This document shows positions 3,992-18,650 of a stretch of DNA of 20,000 bases, in pieces; position 1 is the first letter of the stretch, and every line of letters starts with the position of its first letter. Source of the DNA: an uncultured virus (IMG/VR IMGVR_UViG_3300030518_000008) (taxonomy: Duplodnaviria; Heunggongvirae; Uroviricota; Caudoviricetes). The translations under genes were made by a program, and so were the position numbers. The notes beneath the pieces are model-generated. The model was not told the DNA's origin and did no database searches. It worked only from the letters and a program-made list of their open reading frames with translations. The stretch lies in the IMG/VR virus record IMGVR_UViG_3300030518_000008, one strand, 5' to 3'.

Positions 3992-5071
3992 TCAGCCTCC
4001 CAGCGCAATGCGGCGGGCGTCAATAGCCGCTGCCGCCAGCCCCCAGCATTTCGGGTTGCGTTCGCGCAACCCGCGCAAAACCTCCCTTCCCGCGCCCTCG
4101 CTCCACTTGTTCAGTGTCGTCAGCTCGGTAATCTCGGCGACTTCCTCTCGGATGTGGTCGACCAGCAGGACAGCATCGATCTCAGGGTCCGGCACATACG
4201 TAACAACGTCAGCTTCCGGCTCTGGCTCGGGCGGCATCTTCGGAGACAGCCGGTTGACGGCTTTCGTCAGCGCATCCTGCAAGATGGCCCTGACGGTGCT
4301 TGGCGCCTGATCCATCGTCTTCCTCACCACCGACATGGCGGTAATATAGTTGAGCTGATCGGCGGTCTCGGCACGCTCGCAAGCCGCCACGAACAGCTTG
4401 ATCCACTTGCCGCCATCCGGTTGATCATTCAGTGCCGCACTCACTTTTTGCTCAAACGTCAGCTCGGCCGCCCTGGCGGGCGGCTCGGGATCGGGTGTGT
4501 AGCGGGTCTGTGCGGCAGGCCGGCGCCCCGCGGCAGCAGCATGCCCGTCGTCATCCTCGTCCTCGCGCACGATGTTCAGTAGCATCTCCGCGCAGTATCG
4601 CTTGCCGTAGCTCAACGTACTGCCGATCTGCTGGAGCGGGTTGCGCCCCGGCCCGCTGTCGATCGGCATGGGCAGGCTCGCCGTTTGCGTGTGGCCGCCG
4701 CGGTGGTGCAGTGTGCCCTTGACGTGCAAGCCAGACGGGCCGTTCACCACGTCGAAAGAGAACCACAAGCCAAGCTCGCGCATGACGGGCCGAATGACGG
4801 CGTCCATGTCTTCCCACTTGGCGAAGCTGTATGAGCCCTTGCCGCCAAGGCTGGCTGTACCAAGCTTGGAAACCCGCAGATCGCATCGGTGATTGAAGTC
4901 CGCCATCGCTGCGTTGAACTGCTCCAGCGCATCCCGATCCAGGATGCGGTTCTGCATTTCCAGCAGGGCCATCATCTTCTCTATGTTCACCCGCTCGTCG
5001 GTCGCGGCGCGGGCGATCACTTCCAGCAGCACGCCGCCGGGTGATGGCGTGTGTGGTACAATTTCGTTCAT
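3992..5071 (-). CDS. erf: ERF-family single-stranded DNA annealing recombinase with C-terminal extension
   Basis: Y.FAKWEDM...IRP, L.H..GH, Q.IGSTLSYGKRY and EDEDDDG are ERF signature motifs. Adjacent to Gp157. Confidence 0.88.
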   Translation of the reverse strand: MNEIVPHTPSPGGVLLEVIARAATDERVNIEKMMALLEMQNRILDRDALEQFNAAMADFNHRCDLRVSKLGTASLGGKGSYSFAKWEDMDAVIRPVMRELGLWFSFDVVNGPSGLHVKGTLHHRGGHTQTASLPMPIDSGPGRNPLQQIGSTLSYGKRYCAEMLLNIVREDEDDDGHAAAAGRRPAAQTRYTPDPEPPARAAELTFEQKVSAALNDQPDGGKWIKLFVAACERAETADQLNYITAMSVVRKTMDQAPSTVRAILQDALTKAVNRLSPKMPPEPEPEADVVTYVPDPEIDAVLLVDHIREEVAEITELTTLNKWSEGAGREVLRGLRERNPKCWGLAAAAIDARRIALGG

Positions 5072-5079
5072 GTCAGATC

Positions 5080-5601
5080 CTAGCGGGTTCGAATCACGAT
5101 GTAGCTTTGCGGATTGCGCAGCTCGGCACCCTCGACGACAACGCCGTTTTTCAGTTCTTCCAAGATCGCTTTCTTGTCGGGCGTCACTTTTAAATCCACC
5201 TTTTTGAGCGCTGCCGGCAGCTTTTCCAGGTTCGTGATGACCACGCTCTCTTTGCCGGGCGCCGTCGAAAAAGCCAAGTCGCCGTAGTCGTGTTTGCGGA
5301 TGCCTAGCTCGGCGGCGAGCTGGGCGGCCTCATCGCGCAGGATCTGCTCGCGAGCCAGAAAACGATCCTTGCGCAAACCAATGGCCGCCGCGCGCTGGGC
5401 CGCGACAATCGCCAGATCACTATAATGGACAGCACCGCGCAGCAGACCGCCAAGAATTTCTGTGGCGTCCCTGGTGGCGCCGGTGATCTGATCAAGCATT
5501 TCGTCGTCGTGGATTTCTTCGCGGGCGAATGCCTCACGAACACGATTCAGTCTCGAAAGCGCTGCCTCAATCTGAAAAGCGCTGGGTGGTTTGGCTGACA
5601 T
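5080..5601 (-). CDS. Siphovirus Gp157-family protein
   Basis: Probable start ATG 5601 (MSAKPPS) with GGGGG RBS. Coiled-coil N-terminus and C-terminal SV.IT..EKLP....K.....PDKKAI.E.LK.G..VEGAEL motif. Typical position beside an annealase. Confidence 0.8.
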   Translation of the reverse strand: MSAKPPSAFQIEAALSRLNRVREAFAREEIHDDEMLDQITGATRDATEILGGLLRGAVHYSDLAIVAAQRAAAIGLRKDRFLAREQILRDEAAQLAAELGIRKHDYGDLAFSTAPGKESVVITNLEKLPAALKKVDLKVTPDKKAILEELKNGVVVEGAELRNPQSYIVIRTR

Positions 5602-5657
5602 GGAAACCCCCTTTGTTGCTTTGGCGCCACACTGCGAACATGCAGGCGCATGCAGAC

Positions 5658-5686
5658 TTTCTACCAAGACGGGAAAATTCCGACAA
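5658..5686 (-). promoter_or_regulatory. Leftward sigma70-type promoter for the Gp157-ERF operon
   Basis: Minus strand TTGTCG-N17-TAGAAA with TG preceding the -10. Confidence 0.5.
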
Positions 5687-5718
5687 GCACAAAAAGACGC
5701 AAACGCACACAATCGCAC

Positions 5719-5754
5719 TTGCTTCGCCCAAGACGCGAAGTTATGTCTTGGGCG
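5719..5754 (+). promoter_or_regulatory. Rightward promoter with overlapping 10-bp inverted-repeat operator
   Basis: TTGCTT(5719-5724)-N17-TATGTC(5742-5747). Perfect inverted repeat CGCCCAAGAC(5725-5734)-N10-GTCTTGGGCG(5745-5754). Confidence 0.6.
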
Positions 5755-5963
5755 TGTTAACCATTCCGACATGCTCCGAGCTGGAAGATGCAGCGCACAG
5801 CATCAGAATCAGCATGCGTCGTATCTGCTTAGAAGCGGGCGTCTCACCAACAGTCTACTACCGCTGGCGCCGTCTCAAATGTTCACCCCGAGCGGTTACA
5901 GTCCAAAAACTGATTTTCGTTATCAACAAAAAACTTGATGGGGGCCGCACTGCCTTGGGATGA
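5754..5963 (+). CDS. Cro-like HTH transcriptional regulator
   Basis: From GTG 5754: ...ISMRRICLEAGVSPTVYYRWRR...SP...TVQKL is an XRE/Cro HTH pattern. First gene of the rightward operon. Confidence 0.75.
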   Translation: MLTIPTCSELEDAAHSIRISMRRICLEAGVSPTVYYRWRRLKCSPRAVTVQKLIFVINKKLDGGRTALG

Positions 5964-6408
5964 GGCCTGGCTCGCCGATTACCGTGCCAGGATGGACGGG
6001 TTGAAATCCCTGCCAGCCCTTCCCGACAGCGTGCAGTTCTGCCTGCCGTTTCTGCTCAAGCTGCCTCGGCAAACGCTGGGGCGGCACTGGAGCGAGGCGG
6101 CCCGCTACAGGAAGTGGCTGCGGCCTCACGTCGAGGCTGCCGTTCGCCCCTGGCTTGGTCATGCGCCGATGAAAAAAGCGCAGATCACGATTACCCGCGT
6201 CTCGACCGGCTGCGGCGTCGATTACGATAACAACGTCAGCTCGACAAAGCCGCTGGTGGATTTGCTGCTGATACAAAGCTCGGTTCACCCGTCCTCACTG
6301 GGGCTGATCGAGGACGATGATCCGGCGCGACTGACGCGCATCATCCGCTGGGAGCGCTGCGCGACACGCAAGGAACAACGCACGGAAATAATAATCGAGA
6401 GGGCATAA
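5938..6408 (+). CDS. rusA: RusA-like Holliday junction resolvase
   Basis: DYDN....KPLVDLL...GLIEDDD catalytic Asp/Lys pattern; C-terminal TEIIIE strand. Confidence 0.8.
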   Translation: MGAALPWDEAWLADYRARMDGLKSLPALPDSVQFCLPFLLKLPRQTLGRHWSEAARYRKWLRPHVEAAVRPWLGHAPMKKAQITITRVSTGCGVDYDNNVSSTKPLVDLLLIQSSVHPSSLGLIEDDDPARLTRIIRWERCATRKEQRTEIIIERA

Positions 6409-7004
6409 TGGGAAATAAAACAGGCTCACGCTGGCCGAAAGAACGCGATGACAGGCTGGCCGCCATGTGGCGCGATCCGGATAAAACCGTCGCTGATGTC
6501 AGCGTCGAACTGGGCGTCACCTGGGCGGCGATAAAGCGCAAGGCCGAACGGCTGCGGCTTGGCCCCAAGATCGTCAAGGACGGGAATCGCCTGTACTGGT
6601 CAGCGGACGAAGACGCTGTCTTGAGACGCGGGTTGAAGCGCGGCTCATCCTGGGCTGACATCGCCCGCGTGCTTCCACCCCGCTCGATGGACTCCTGCCG
6701 CAAGCGCGCTTGTTATCTGGGGATTGTCCGCGAAGAACCTATCGAGCCGCCGCTGCCGCCGTTGCCGCCGCGGATTGTGCCGAAGGTGATCAGGTTGCCG
6801 GTCTGCCAGGCCCAGCCGGCGCATCCCGTCCGCGTGCTGATTGTGCCGCCGGCGCATGACTGTCAGTTCCCGTTGTGGAGCGATGGAACACCACGCTTTG
6901 AGCGGCGGGTTTGCGAATCCCCAGTCTGGCGCGGCAGCTATTGCAGGTGCCACTGGGAGAAATGCTACGAGACGGTGGGCGAGCGGATTTTGGAGATGGC
7001 ATGA
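6408..7004 (+). CDS. gcrA: GcrA-like cell-cycle regulator homologue with duplicated N-terminal HTH
   Basis: W......L..MW.....T...V..ELGVT..AI..KA.RL.L, followed by a second W.....AVL....SW.DIA..L..RS..SC..RA repeat. Pro-rich linker, then CQFPLW...C..PV..GSYC..H...Y resembling the GcrA C-terminal domain. Confidence 0.72.
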   Translation: MGNKTGSRWPKERDDRLAAMWRDPDKTVADVSVELGVTWAAIKRKAERLRLGPKIVKDGNRLYWSADEDAVLRRGLKRGSSWADIARVLPPRSMDSCRKRACYLGIVREEPIEPPLPPLPPRIVPKVIRLPVCQAQPAHPVRVLIVPPAHDCQFPLWSDGTPRFERRVCESPVWRGSYCRCHWEKCYETVGERILEMA

Positions 7005-7318
7005 TGGCTGACGGAGATGATGTTGTCGGCTGGCGCGTTCACCTGATCCAGCCGCTCGAAACGGTATCGAATATCAAGTCCGACCATTATTCGGTTGACT
7101 TCAAGACCAAAGAGGAAGCCGACGCCTACAAACGAAAAATGCAGGCAGAAGGCTGGGTTGCCAACACAAGCCCGGTTTTACCTGTCGCCGCAAGTGAGGG
7201 GAAAATGAGAAAAACAACACAGGGGCGAGCAGCCCCACCGGGGTTCAATGCAGACTGGCGCCTGCACGGCAGCGCGCCGCCCGTAGGGGCGGACAGCAAA
7301 TCGCGGGAGCGTGGCTGA
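7001..7318 (+). CDS. Hypothetical phage protein
   Basis: ATGA overlap with the gcrA-like stop, GGAG RBS, and overlap with the dnaB start. Confidence 0.65.
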   Translation: MMADGDDVVGWRVHLIQPLETVSNIKSDHYSVDFKTKEEADAYKRKMQAEGWVANTSPVLPVAASEGKMRKTTQGRAAPPGFNADWRLHGSAPPVGADSKSRERG

Positions 7319-8576
7319 GCGAGGCCCGCCAGCAAACTTACTCGCCGAACGCGGACTACTAGGCGCGATCCTGGTTAACAACAAAACCGTGGATCGATGC
7401 GCCGGGCTTTCTGGCGAGGATTTTTACTGGCCGGCGCACGGCCTGCTGTTCGAGGCCATGCGCTCACGGATCGAGCAGGGGCGATCCGTCGATCCGATCG
7501 TGATGCAGTCGTTCGCGGATGTGGTGTTTGAGGGAGAGAGTGGCGTTGTCTATCTGATGAAGCTCGCCTCGATGGTGATCGGCACGCTGATGATCAAAGA
7601 GTATGCGCAGTCCATCATGGACTGCGCACTGCGGCGGCGAATCATCGAGGTAGCCGAGACGATGATCGCCGAGGCGCACGGCACCGAGCCCGGCCTGGTC
7701 ACATCAACGGCGGCTGTCGCCGCCATAGAGCAGGCTACAAACCGTTATGCGGTGGCGGGCACCACTTCGATAGGTAGAGCGGTTGCCGTCGCCGTGGCGC
7801 AAGCCAGCGCGAGACAGAGGGGGGAGAAGACAGGTCATTACCTGATGACCGGCTGCAAGCCGCTGGATAACATCTGGCGCGGCTTGCACAACGGGGCGCT
7901 GGAAATTCTCGGCGGCCGGGCCGGATCGGGCAAGACGGCGCTGGCGCGCCAGATCGCGCGCCATGTCGCCGCCAAAGGCGCGGCGGTTGCGTTTTTCTCG
8001 CTGGAAATGCCGCATGCCGATCTGGCGACGGCTGATCTGTCCAGCGTCAGCGGCGTGTCGATGGATACCATTCGTTTGGGCGAGTTCGATAACCGCCAGG
8101 CAGAGGCGATACTTCGCGCAGAGAAATACCTCGCCCAGCTTCCGATCCACATTGTCGACACACCCGGCCTGCCGATCGATCAGGCAGTGTCGAGGATGCG
8201 CGCGATGGTGCGCACCGTTGGCGCCAAGCTCGTGATCGTGGATCACCGGGACCAGTTTGGCCGCGATTCCAAAGACCGCGACGACATCGGGTGGTATCGC
8301 AACATCACCCAGGTATTAAAGGTTACGGCAAAATCCCTGAATATCCCGATCCTCTTACTCGTTCAGCTTTCACGAGACATCGAGCGGCGCGAGAACAAGA
8401 CGCCAAGAATGAGCGATCTGATGTATTCCGGCGAAGCGGATGCCGACACCATCATTCTGATGCACCGCGAGGGCGATGTCGCCACCGCGTCATTCGTCAA
8501 GCGCCGGTTCGGCGCGCTGGGCAATGTGCGGCTGCATTTCGCCGAAGTGTCCACTACATTCGGATCGTGGACTTAG
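7311..8576 (+). CDS. dnaB: DnaB-like replicative DNA helicase
   Basis: N-terminal PP.N..AE..LLGAIL and DFY...H..LF. Walker A GRAGSGKT, FFSLEM, Walker B LVIVD, QLSR..E.R..K.P..SDL and K.R.G arginine finger. Confidence 0.92.
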   Translation: MAERGPPANLLAERGLLGAILVNNKTVDRCAGLSGEDFYWPAHGLLFEAMRSRIEQGRSVDPIVMQSFADVVFEGESGVVYLMKLASMVIGTLMIKEYAQSIMDCALRRRIIEVAETMIAEAHGTEPGLVTSTAAVAAIEQATNRYAVAGTTSIGRAVAVAVAQASARQRGEKTGHYLMTGCKPLDNIWRGLHNGALEILGGRAGSGKTALARQIARHVAAKGAAVAFFSLEMPHADLATADLSSVSGVSMDTIRLGEFDNRQAEAILRAEKYLAQLPIHIVDTPGLPIDQAVSRMRAMVRTVGAKLVIVDHRDQFGRDSKDRDDIGWYRNITQVLKVTAKSLNIPILLLVQLSRDIERRENKTPRMSDLMYSGEADADTIILMHREGDVATASFVKRRFGALGNVRLHFAEVSTTFGSWT

Positions 8577-10901: not shown

Positions 10902-11567
10902 ATGACGCGGACTTACCTATCCAACATCAGGCCGGACTGGCCGACTGCCCGGCAGGAAGAACTGCTTGATCGGGCAATTCCCGAATGGCGATCAGGCGCG
11001 GTCTATCGAGACATCCTTCCTCGCGCTGGTCTCAAGTCTCGAAGGTCGCTCAAAGAACGCGATACCAACCTGCTGCGCGCTCACGGTCGAGTGAATGTTG
11101 ATGAGATTATTTGGGTCGCCAGCTTGACGGTCCTCGCATGGAACACGACCGACCTTATGGCTGTTCTGATGCGGGTTGCCGCTCGGCATGAGCAGCTTCA
11201 GGCCATTGCTGAAAACTTGCTTATCAATCCGGCCAATGCAGACCTGGATGGGCTTAAGACAGCCTTCCGTAGCGCCTTACGCCGCTTTAGTCCGGCTGGA
11301 GTGCCAGGGGGAGAGGCTTCAGGCAAAAGGCGCAGTGAGATTGCCCAGGCTTCCGTGGAGAAGATGCGGCCCTATTGGGCGCTACCGAGTGCGGATTACC
11401 CCACCACCAAACTGTGCAAGGAGTTCGGTGTCTCGCGACCGACAGCGTTCTTGTATCTCGGGAAGCGTAAGGATGCGCAGAAACAGCATGAAGCCGGGCT
11501 AAAGGTCGCGGAATCAAACCGAAAACGAAAGAAGCGTGGAAAGGATTATCAAGATGAACAAGCCTGA
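10902..11567 (+). CDS. Degenerate serine-resolvase-like protein with C-terminal HTH
   Basis: Y.......RQ..LL......VY.D......ER..LL......I.V.SL..LA....DL...L......L..I follows the resolvase catalytic-domain pattern. C-terminal TTKLCKEFGVSRPTAF.YL is a resolvase-type HTH. The YxRVS and DRLxR residues are absent. Confidence 0.65.
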   Translation: MTRTYLSNIRPDWPTARQEELLDRAIPEWRSGAVYRDILPRAGLKSRRSLKERDTNLLRAHGRVNVDEIIWVASLTVLAWNTTDLMAVLMRVAARHEQLQAIAENLLINPANADLDGLKTAFRSALRRFSPAGVPGGEASGKRRSEIAQASVEKMRPYWALPSADYPTTKLCKEFGVSRPTAFLYLGKRKDAQKQHEAGLKVAESNRKRKKRGKDYQDEQA

Positions 11568-16451: not shown

Positions 16452-16658
16452 TCAGCCTCCAACCTGGAAGCAGTAGATGGTGCAGAAGGTGAGGTGGTGC
16501 GGAACGGTCAAACCGTGCGCCCACAGAACGGTCAGCAGGGCGTTCGCTTCGTCGTCGCTGCCCAGGTTATCGATGATGCCTTGCAGGCTCTTGGCGGGCT
16601 TGCTGATGGCGGTAGCAACCCGCTTGTCCATGCGGGCGATGAGCTTGGCTTGTGTCAT
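16452..16658 (-). CDS. Hypothetical phage protein, first gene of the leftward early-type operon
   Basis: Strong GAGGAG RBS; downstream of the promoter at 16828-16856. Confidence 0.65.
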   Translation of the reverse strand: MTQAKLIARMDKRVATAISKPAKSLQGIIDNLGSDDEANALLTVLWAHGLTVPHHLTFCTIYCFQVGG

Positions 16659-16827
16659 TGGTGTTCTCCTCTCAGGCGTTGAAGGAGAGGCACCGTTGGT
16701 GCCGCTCCCTAAGCGTCCGTAGTCTGTCCTGTCATCCCCTCACTGAGGGGCGTTTGAGCACCGGCTTGACGGTCTGCTTGGCGGTCTGGGCTGGCCCGGT
16801 AGAGCGGTGTGTCGCTCTGATAAAGCT

Positions 16828-16856
16828 AACATAGTCCGCTTGTCGGGATTGTGCAA
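16828..16856 (-). promoter_or_regulatory. Leftward sigma70 promoter of the small-gene operon
   Basis: Minus strand TTGCAC-N17-TATGTT. Confidence 0.6.
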
Positions 16857-17006
16857 GCGCTTTCTCCAAGCACGGCAATGACGAAAGCGTGAGCACGATT
16901 TAGCGTTGTCAGTAGCTGCGCAGGTGGTCGTACATCCATCGTAACGATGCTTTCTGCAACATGTGATCAAAAAAACCCAGGACTAAGGCCGCTTTCAAAA
17001 CGTGAT

Positions 17007-17035
17007 TTGACACGTTAAAAACCGTTTGCTATACG
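17007..17035 (+). promoter_or_regulatory. Strong rightward sigma70 promoter
   Basis: TTGACA-N17-TATACG with extended TG; GCTATA resembles the alphaproteobacterial -10. Confidence 0.7.
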
Positions 17036-17194
17036 CGCGGATACAAACTCCGTCGGTTCTACCAGTCTTTCTTTCTTACTTTCTTTCTTGTTTGTTGAAA
17101 CAGATGCGAGCGGACCGCCACAAGGCGGGTAGCGCTCTGGCAGGTGGGGCACGAGAGAAACCGAGCCTGAACCATCCCTGGCCCGACTCTCAAA

Positions 17195-17452
17195 GCCAGC
17201 ACCAGCAATTCCGGAGGGACTCGGATGGTCTTTCCCTCTTGACCCATAAGCAGGCTAGCGTGCCATGCCGGTTCCGCTGGAGCTCCACCGGCAATCCACG
17301 ACCGAACGGTCCTGAGCAAGAGTTCTGCACACGGTTTCAACACCAAAGCGTGGACAGAAGTGGGCATGACCCATTAGAGTGCAGGAGGCAACAGTCTCAA
17401 CGAGTGTGTACCAAGGCATGGGAATAAAGATGACGCCAGCACCAGCAATTCC
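17195..17452 (+). repeat. 18-bp direct repeat GCCAGCACCAGCAATTCC, two copies
   Basis: Identical copies at 17195-17212 and 17435-17452, 240 bp apart; a partial copy CACCGGCAATCC near 17286. Confidence 0.85.
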
Positions 17453-17469
17453 TGCGCGCGCGAGGAACA

Positions 17470-17844
17470 ATGCCAAAGCTGCCTGAGGTCGGGGCGACAT
17501 ACAAAAGGTTCGGATCGGATGTGCCTTATGTCTGTGTCAGGCGCGAATGGTATCAGCGCAAGGATGGCAAGAGCGTCGAAGTGCCGGTCTGGACGGCAGC
17601 TTGCAGGCAGTGTCAGGTGCAGTTTGAGCAGCGAAACTGGAACCCCGACACACAGCGATGCAGAACCTGCATAGGACCGTTCCAGATGCCTGGAAGGCCA
17701 CCAACATATAGGCCGGGTATGCAGCCGAAAGCGCCGGATATGATAGATTCTAGCCACAAAACGTCAGAGAAGCTTGCCAATTCGTACTGGAAGAACGGCA
17801 CCAGCCAGTTGAAACCCCCCTCCAGCGGGTATATCACCGACTGA
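17470..17844 (+). CDS. Hypothetical protein with CxxC...CxxC putative Zn ribbon
   Basis: GAGGA RBS; CRQC and CRTC pairs. Confidence 0.65.
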   Translation: MPKLPEVGATYKRFGSDVPYVCVRREWYQRKDGKSVEVPVWTAACRQCQVQFEQRNWNPDTQRCRTCIGPFQMPGRPPTYRPGMQPKAPDMIDSSHKTSEKLANSYWKNGTSQLKPPSSGYITD

Positions 17845-17882
17845 GTGGTACCCGCGCGAGGCCTGAGTGGTACCCGTGCGAG
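17841..17882 (+). repeat. Tandem 20-bp direct repeat CTGAGTGGTACCCGYGCGAG, period 22
   Basis: Copies at 17841-17860 and 17863-17882 with one mismatch. Confidence 0.85.
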
Positions 17883-17915
17883 TGTGCAGTGAGGCTAACG
17901 CTAGCAGCTAAGCTG

Positions 17916-17944
17916 TTGACATTGCACGATAGCTGACTTAACAT
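17916..17944 (+). promoter_or_regulatory. Candidate sigma70 promoter overlapping the dif-like site
   Basis: TTGACA-N17-TAACAT. Confidence 0.45.
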
Positions 17945-17963
17945 AATCACCATTATACGGTCT
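17936..17963 (-). other. dif-like XerC/XerD recombination site
   Basis: Minus strand AGACCGTATAA-TGGTGA-TTATGTTAAGT in an 11-6-11 layout. The XerD arm matches E. coli TTATGTTAAAT at 10/11, and the XerC arm keeps the CG.ATAA core. The site is intergenic. Confidence 0.78.
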
Positions 17964-18176
17964 TTACAGATACACTAGGCGCCAGTGACGCCGTCTTGTG
18001 GCAGTCTCGGTGCCAGGGTGGTGGCCCCCCCTCCCTCGCCCCTCCCTCGCCCCGCCAGCGGTTTCCGCAGCGGTTCCGACCCTTTGGGACGTTGACTGGC
18101 GAGGGAAAAGGTCCCCACCCCATCTCTCCGTTTATTTTTTTCTGTATGGATTGTGCAAACCCGGTATTCTGGCCTC

Positions 18177-18650
18177 ATGAGCAGGACATCGGATTTGTCA
18201 AATGATGAAGGCGCGCCTCGGTTTTCACCTGTCCAGCAGGCGCGTTTGCAGTGCGCCCGTCTTGGCATTCCCTTGGGGCGGTACAGGCAGTGGCGGGCGG
18301 AGCGCGCCAGCGCGCAGCGTCGTGGTCTGGCGTGGGATCTGGGGCTGCCTGAGTGGCATGCGCAGGCGCTGGAGGGGGTGGTTGTTGAGGTTGACCCGAT
18401 CGATGCGGCTATTCGCCGTGCTGGGGTGATCAGGCGCAGCGCTACGCTGGCTGTGGCGGGGCGTGGCTTGGGGGATCATCTGCGGGTGAAGGGTGCGGCG
18501 CATCCGCGCTCACGCGCGGTGCTCACGCCTGAGGGGCGGTTTGCCTCGCTCACGCTTGCGGCCGAGGCGTTCGGGGTTAGCAGGCAGGCGGTGTGTCAGT
18601 GGCTGCGGGAGGGCCGGGCCGGGTGGAGGTATGATGGGGCATCAGAGTAA
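18177..18650 (+). CDS. Homing-endonuclease-derived DNA-binding protein (NUMOD1-like HTH, no nuclease core seen)
   Basis: Y......A.RRG..W.L...EW N-terminal motif; HP.SRAV.TP.G.F.SL..AAEAFGVS...V..W C-terminal HTH. Confidence 0.6.
   Translation: MSRTSDLSNDEGAPRFSPVQQARLQCARLGIPLGRYRQWRAERASAQRRGLAWDLGLPEWHAQALEGVVVEVDPIDAAIRRAGVIRRSATLAVAGRGLGDHLRVKGAAHPRSRAVLTPEGRFASLTLAAEAFGVSRQAVCQWLREGRAGWRYDGASE

Follow-up and report, generated by a model that had tools for sequence, protein, structure and literature searches.

RESULTS

Gene content of the phage genome

The window analyzed here is a stretch of 20,000 nucleotides from an uncultured tailed virus (IMG/VR IMGVR_UViG_3300030518_000008), and together with two further records, G001 (54,919 bp) and G002 (19,678 bp), it closes into a circle of 63,824 bp. 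Both records overlap the window at about 99.8 to 100% identity, and they also overlap each other. All 24 of the runs listed were peat DNA metagenomes, and 2 of these are possible sources. The genome encodes an endolysin, an SU10-type adaptor, and a terminase-like protein that carries an insertion and whose relatives are annotated as terminases. Within the window lie genes for an Erf single-strand annealing protein (positions 3992 to 5071, minus strand; PF04404, phrog_155), a Gp157/Gam-like end-protection protein (5080 to 5772, minus strand; PF05565, phrog_253), and a DnaB-like helicase (7311 to 8576, plus strand). The product of a further open reading frame (ORF; 6408 to 7004, plus strand) is a GcrA-like regulator with Atlas matches of 0.91 to 0.92 to GcrA clusters, a lead given by these matches rather than by an alignment. 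To our knowledge, GcrA is restricted to Alphaproteobacteria, and as a lead this ORF points to an alphaproteobacterial host. GANTC, the CcrM site, is depleted in the whole circle (85 observed versus 145 expected), as would fit avoidance of CcrM sites. The terminase (L001:730-3792, minus strand) is 1,020 aa long compared with 671 aa in its 77% relative, and the insertion looks intein-like: intein-type Pfam domains are present in homologues of comparable length. A TPR protein and two methyltransferases encoded upstream of terL (L001:3916-7157, minus strand) are common to relatives, and the virion region encodes a large GH5 plus GH26 glycosidase protein (L003:14225-18664, minus strand), an S8 peptidase (L003:454-1473, minus strand), and a GNAT acetyltransferase (L003:13100-13555, minus strand).

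The first-pass annotation, made from the window alone, had seen no integrase. This observation extends to the whole circle, in which neither PF00589 nor PF07508 was found, so that the full genome yielded no tyrosine integrase and no large serine recombinase. Six-frame searches of G001 plus G002 returned no PF00589, PF00239, PF07508, or PF13614, and no ORF longer than 133 aa occurs in the 1.3 kb for which the window is the sole record. The Pfam scans took in 30 ORFs of the window and 103 to 104 of the 133 listed outside it, with nested and duplicate frames left out. A lifestyle as a phage-plasmid, also suggested earlier, was not borne out: ParA (PF13614) was found in none of five records, and the scanned ORFs contained no ParB or Rep family.

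However, the window also encodes a protein, missed in the first pass, with a serine resolvase fold and a helix-turn-helix but without canonical catalytic motifs (10902 to 11567, plus strand). Its Atlas neighbors have the serine resolvase fold, its AlphaFold model (pLDDT, 82.9) has gamma-delta resolvase as the top Foldseek match (E = 8.7 × 10−4), and it matches a profile of the phage family's own resolvases (E = 7.6 × 10−6). The fold was found by structure search and not by phmmer against the PDB. YxRxS and DRLxR are the catalytic motifs of serine resolvases. In a nine-member alignment, YLSNIR stands at the place of YxRxS, a correspondence drawn by eye at the N terminus (hhalign began at residue 15), and LTVLAW is aligned to LDRLGR. 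Across the 10 database matches of this protein family, which Pfam misses, YLSNIR is invariant and the DRLxR motif is absent; tblastn detected no homologue in the relatives' loci. We infer that the protein is catalytically dead or altered. Given this predicted resolvase-fold protein, calling the phage "recombinase-free" needs a caveat.

A dif-like site in the noncoding gap upstream of the packaging genes

A predicted XerCD site of 28 bp occupies positions 17936 to 17963 on the minus strand, where it had first been noticed, and reads AGACCGTATAA TGGTGA TTATGTTAAGT, with the XerC arm at 17953 to 17963, the center (TGGTGA) at 17947 to 17952, and the XerD arm at 17936 to 17946. The 11-6-11 layout, the inner palindrome, and the conserved XerD arm of XerCD sites are all present. 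The site is placed in a noncoding gap upstream of the packaging genes, with no ORF of at least 60 aa over it, and occurs once in the circle. When the 20-kb window was searched for ATAA-N6-TTATGTTAA, allowing at most two mismatches, the single match was this site, with 0 mismatches; shuffled sequence, searched in the same way, gave a mean of 0.04 matches (7 of 200 shuffles with any). Scoring against a dif profile built from 18 sites from outside this phage family gave 29.3 bits for the site and 6.6 for the next best window position, compared with a maximum of 16.5 bits in 248 control scans, in which the spacer was wrong or the arms were reversed or swapped. Most training sites of the profile had been found through the same XerD arm, which favors this site.

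Both arms recur in chromosomal sites. Among the dif rows listed in the supplement of PMC3025954, the XerC-arm motif CGTATAA occurs in at least 35, including Gluconobacter, Granulibacter, and Gluconacetobacter, and the XerD arm TTATGTTAAGT occurs in at least 9 chromosomal rows; the inner XerC arm is common to the phage site and a Gluconobacter row listed in the supplement of PMC2731167. Contigs of all four metagenome runs compared bridge the site without a variant letter (depth, 7 to 13), while nearby positions vary. An Rfam search of 16500 to 18400 gave no match, and blastn of the site region against cultured phages gave chance matches only. Judged from its sequence, the dif-like site is real, and its function is a matter of inference.

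A sigma70-like promoter, TTGACA-N17-TAACAT (17916 to 17944, plus strand), overlaps the site as had been proposed, with 10 of 12 consensus positions and its −10 in the XerD arm. Because TAACAT simply reproduces the opposite strand of the XerD arm, the −35 alone is independent information. TTGACA occurs in 19 copies on both strands of the 63.8 kb, and an exact match at a spacing of 16 to 18 nt has a chance probability of ∼4.5 × 10−4; such a match is hardly expected by chance, which makes it plausible that this phage has a promoter here. However, it is lineage specific and not conserved in relatives: the −35 equivalent beside their sites agrees at 2 to 3 of 6 positions in all five tested, and no promoter covers the dif-like site of G438, the closest look-alike. 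The IHF-like match (17909 to 17921, plus strand) does have a single mismatch, but 13 equal or better matches occur in the genome, it shares TTGAC with the −35, and it sits on the XerD side; it was rejected as background. ColE1 cer contains the Pcer promoter, which drives Rcd RNA. The analogy drawn to cer and Pcer is not supported: in the available text of 10.1101/2024.04.05.588136, the accessory DNA of cer and psi, sites of small multicopy plasmids, adjoins the XerC arm, whereas the IHF box and promoter of the phage lie on the opposite, XerD side and are not conserved.

Other elements lie close by. A C-run plus T-tract motif following a C-rich stretch (18113 to 18141, plus strand) is a candidate packaging or genome-end signal. 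Two 20-nt direct repeats (17841 to 17882, plus strand), 54 to 95 bp from the XerD arm, each contain GGTACC, and these two copies (17847 and 17869) are the only ones in the whole window. GGTACC also occurs once, 29 bp from the G015 site (L036, about 3318), and is absent near six other sites checked. A perfect 18-nt direct repeat in the noncoding gap (17195 to 17212 and 17435 to 17452, 240 bp apart) is possibly part of an origin. Two divergent promoters called by eye, TTGACA-N17-TATACG with an extended TG (17007 to 17035, plus strand) and TTGCAC-N17-TATGTT (16856 to 16828, minus strand), are described here with −10 boxes lacking the last T and stand ahead of a ∼430-nt leader with no Rfam match. 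Between strains, substitutions and small indels cluster at 16676 to 16718, upstream of leftward genes. KOPS showed no polarity (nine copies, four pointing toward and five away).

Similar sites in related phages

The first-pass annotation had suggested looking for the site in related phages, and such sites were found in eight lineages of the family, the closest relative match being identical at 25 of 28 positions. At least 428 viral contigs carry the terL. Terminase searches supplied 158 loci (1.57 Mb), in which the exact core ATAA-N6-TTATG had 11 strand matches in 5 distinct places, including this phage, compared with 2 to 4 matches for the same core with a spacer of 4, 5, 7, or 8. A profile scan added sites in G020 and G016; with G438 (see below), this brings the total to eight lineages. 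Three of the eight family sites exceed the control maximum of 16.5 bits; the other five, at 11.6 to 15.5 bits, fall below it and rest on position and arm pattern. The 6-bp spacing is exact in all of them, seven of the eight lie 1.9 to 9.1 kb upstream of terL, and, relative to that gene, four are in minus and four in plus orientation. The exact core was present in one of six records at least 90% complete. In G014, ∼95% identical to G015, the XerD arm has changed from TTATG to TGCTG (L035:3870); a tyrosine recombinase gene is present in the two phages.

A C/G-run plus A/T-tract motif lies 104 to 246 bp from seven of the eight family sites; in G015, it lies 806 bp away. The motif was defined after three sites had been viewed; among the five others, it accompanies four, against a background of 0.07 to 0.11 per lineage.

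Viral contigs scanned with the 18 fixed bases gave 38 loci, representing 26 distinct sites. Besides this phage, three loci belong to one phage of the same terminase family, G438 (35% identity), one matches only one protein of a relative, and the other 33 gave no match. G438 is the sole phage of the same terminase family among the 25 other distinct viral sites. Its 25/28 identity includes 7 of 10 free positions, where the other 24 distinct viral sites agree at no more than 5, and the three XerC-side center bases (TGG) are the same. In G438 the site precedes terL by 9.1 kb, in the region and orientation seen in this phage, with unrelated flanks. Conservation of the site across divergent relatives supports the use of host XerCD.

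Alignments of noncoding regions with relatives were unconvincing beyond the site, with no blastn match outside this phage, and an XerC-arm-only scan (72 stretches) found no further family member. A candidate site in G022 lies inside a 469-codon ORF and was taken as chance, and a looser candidate in G027 was not counted. Among cultured phages, the best terL relatives are 27 to 33% identical. Unrelated G+C-rich viral contigs (L271, L276, L281, L282, L290, and L306; L279 and L285) also carry dif-like sites with G+C-rich centers.

The site and the small serine resolvase within the family

A small serine resolvase (PF00239) is encoded in 7 of 26 family records, typically 2 to 8.5 kb upstream of terL, and a tyrosine recombinase is encoded in 3 of 24. 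A PF00239 search found none in G001, G002, G015, G020, G021, G034, or the G438 fragments, and the 14-kb locus L117 had no resolvase match. Among the dif-bearing lineages searched as whole records, one of seven (G016) also has a resolvase. Strict mutual exclusion was rejected on account of G016, and because most records of relatives are fragments, exclusivity is weakly tested. G015 combines a site with a tyrosine recombinase, and in G008 and G010 no site, resolvase, or integrase was found. On a quick terL tree, in which G020 and G016 were not labeled as dif, the dif and resolvase labels are scattered (five changes each, no clustering), and this phage stands next to resolvase-bearing G004.

Center sequence, host search, and signs of integration

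The mean G+C fraction of the center is 0.58 in the 8 family sites versus 0.10 in 14 chromosome-like sites. TGGTGA matched the center of no chromosomal dif found and agrees at 0 to 3 of 6 positions with the 30 plus 7 loci compared, and the best chromosomal arm match, 19 of 22, has a center matching at 2 of 6. The 401 genomes of G030's class contained 48 XerC-arm matches, none with a center starting TGG; the XerD arm was found in 12 and the XerC arm in 45 of these genomes, while the search in one family gave 7 of 15 genomes. No host was identified among them.

None of the four metagenome runs had a joint or a listed loose end at the site (depth, 7 to 13; four loose ends not shown), the run data being contigs, which drop rare forms. 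By terL search, the genome collection, which like the four runs may lack the host, contained no relative as a prophage with host flanks and none in an isolate. All 11 terL matches of at least 30% over long stretches were on metagenome-assembled genome (MAG) contigs of at most 62 kb; the other 14 terL loci comprised one short fragment and 13 distant matches (23 to 28%). In the available text of PMC9226527, FtsK-driven excision of the gonococcal island (GGI) and TLC is limited by the degenerate XerD arms of these elements; this degeneracy was not found in the phage, whose arm is canonical. Two uses had been offered for the site in the first pass, integration and resolution of circular phage DNA. 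Resolution fits better and integration less well, because the center is unlike that of the chromosomal dif sites found, the XerD arm is canonical, and neither a junction in the four runs nor a flanked prophage in the genome collection was found.

DISCUSSION

We favor, with a probability of roughly 50%, the interpretation that host XerCD resolves dimers and catenanes of the phage circle at the phage site, recombination occurring between copies of phage DNA. The genome would circularize after entry and replicate as a circle. Homologous recombination, by phage Erf or host RecA, would produce circular dimers, and replication would produce catenanes. XerCD takes part in decatenation, and host XerCD, probably activated by FtsK as on large plasmids, would resolve both products at the site, doing the same job as the small serine resolvase in many sister phages. 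The G+C-rich center, unlike the host type, would block a completed crossover with chromosomal dif. Such a system may be most important in a circular carrier state or in early theta replication. Several observations weigh against this interpretation: the site is patchy, with G008 and G010 lacking site, resolvase, and integrase; G016 has both resolvase and site, a tyrosine recombinase accompanies the site of G015, and the XerD arm of G014 is decayed; the lack of ParA leaves a stable plasmid state unsupported; and KOPS are without polarity. In addition, enterobacterial plasmids of 30 to 100 kb tend to be without Xer sites, as far as the available text of 10.1101/2024.04.05.588136 describes them. 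A composite reading, in which the Xer site and the serine resolvase are interchangeable, XerCD acts in a Cre-like manner on a genome-end site, and the resolvase-fold protein is the synapse partner, strikes us as quite improbable; its architectural or activating-partner step is drawn from this genome alone.

Other roles for the site were weighed against dimer and catenane resolution. Cre at loxP circularizes the injected P1 genome, and host XerCD might serve as the phage's Cre if the site lay inside a terminal redundancy, its end copies recombining to circularize the injected genome. The distance of 104 to 246 bp to a candidate end or packaging motif in seven of eight lineages is consistent with this idea, as are the starts of long relative contigs, 10 of 30 of which lie 5 to 10 kb upstream of terL when 3.6 would be expected (scan-corrected P = 0.007), and the longest contig on record with this phage's protein, which at 64,489 bp exceeds the circle by 665 bp. 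However, the run data are contigs with no start or end peak listed, the motif was chosen after three sites had been seen, tandem repeats coincide with 3 of the 10 contig starts, and the contig set retains three pairs of near-duplicates. The phage also has Erf, a protein that circularizes P22. On balance, we consider a Cre-like role unlikely. Integrase-free integration at host dif, with the site as attP in the manner of an IMEX, seems rather unlikely. The circle lacks an integrase, the XerC-side TGG of the center is the same in a distant relative, and the host's dif could match, but no joint or listed loose end appeared at the site in four of four runs, the 11 long terL matches of at least 30% were all on MAG contigs of at most 62 kb, and the best chromosomal match pairs 19 of 22 arm positions with 2 of 6 in the center. 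Moreover, the stable IMEXs GGI and TLC have degenerate XerD arms in the available text of PMC9226527, and the phage arm is canonical.

Two further explanations were considered. XerCD might bind without recombining, repressing the overlapping promoter or acting as a roadblock or organizer beside the packaging region. The absence of the −35 in all five relatives tested and in G438, the even split of orientations relative to terL (four minus, four plus), and the exact 6-bp spacing kept in all sites make this quite unlikely, even though an exact −35 at 17 nt is itself unlikely by chance and the neighborhood of the C/G-run motif is fixed. Finally, the site could have been acquired from a host or plasmid and be a relic without function, or it could be a product of chance. 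Its patchy distribution, the decayed G014 copy, and the presence of Xer-like sites with a similar XerC arm on Sphingobium and Sphingopyxis plasmids would suit such an origin. This we regard as very unlikely, with a score far above controls, an island of identity between unrelated flanks in a phage of 35% terminase identity, invariance in four runs while nearby positions vary, and a recurrent position in eight lineages.

Use of host XerCD for dimer and catenane resolution would place the phage alongside several known systems. ColE1 cer and pSC101 psi likewise rely on host XerCD, proposed here for multimer resolution. As in P1, with loxP and Cre, a putative recombination site lies close to where packaging is presumed to start, in a phage that would be terminally redundant; in contrast to P1, there is no Cre-like gene, and the recombinase would be the host's. 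The IMEXs (CTX, VGJ, TLC, the gonococcal island, gokushoviruses, and nontailed vibriophages) likewise combine a dif-like site with the lack of an integrase, but they integrate at dif, whereas no integrated copy of this phage was found and its XerD arm is not degenerate. With regard to the IMEX trait of having no recombinase of its own, PF00589, PF00239, and PF07508 are absent, yet the protein at 10902 to 11567 has a resolvase fold. Chromosomal dif, recombined by XerC and XerD with FtsK, has the same 11-6-11 layout and arm motifs (available parts of PMC2731167 and PMC3025954); the phage site differs in lying on a 64-kb phage, in its G+C-rich center, and in the lack of KOPS polarity. Plasmid Xer sites have unconserved centers, and those of 28 bp can be FtsK driven; the FtsK-dependent 28-bp sites of large plasmids are likewise single, with an unconserved center, and host XerCD replaces a recombinase of the plasmid's own (available text of 10.1101/2024.04.05.588136). 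In contrast to these plasmids, the replicon here is a tailed phage in which no partition genes were found, and replicons of this size are usually without an Xer site in the same text (10.1101/2024.04.05.588136).

Among the matches listed in a search of the open-access literature, Xer-using phages are filamentous, microviral, double-jelly-roll, and satellite cases (including 10.1101/633727), and that search returned no paper on dif sites in integrase-less tailed phages. To these cases, this phage adds a nearly identical site in a distant relative and, within one family, the resolvase alternative. Xer use by phages is known for small, nontailed, integrating phages. If large tailed phages keep such a site without signs of integration, the role of XerCD would widen to phage DNA metabolism, and it would also follow that phages scored as virulent for want of an integrase may pass through a circular carrier stage. 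The exchange of resolvase for dif among members of one family lends itself directly to experiment, and hosts might be predicted with the help of dif arms.
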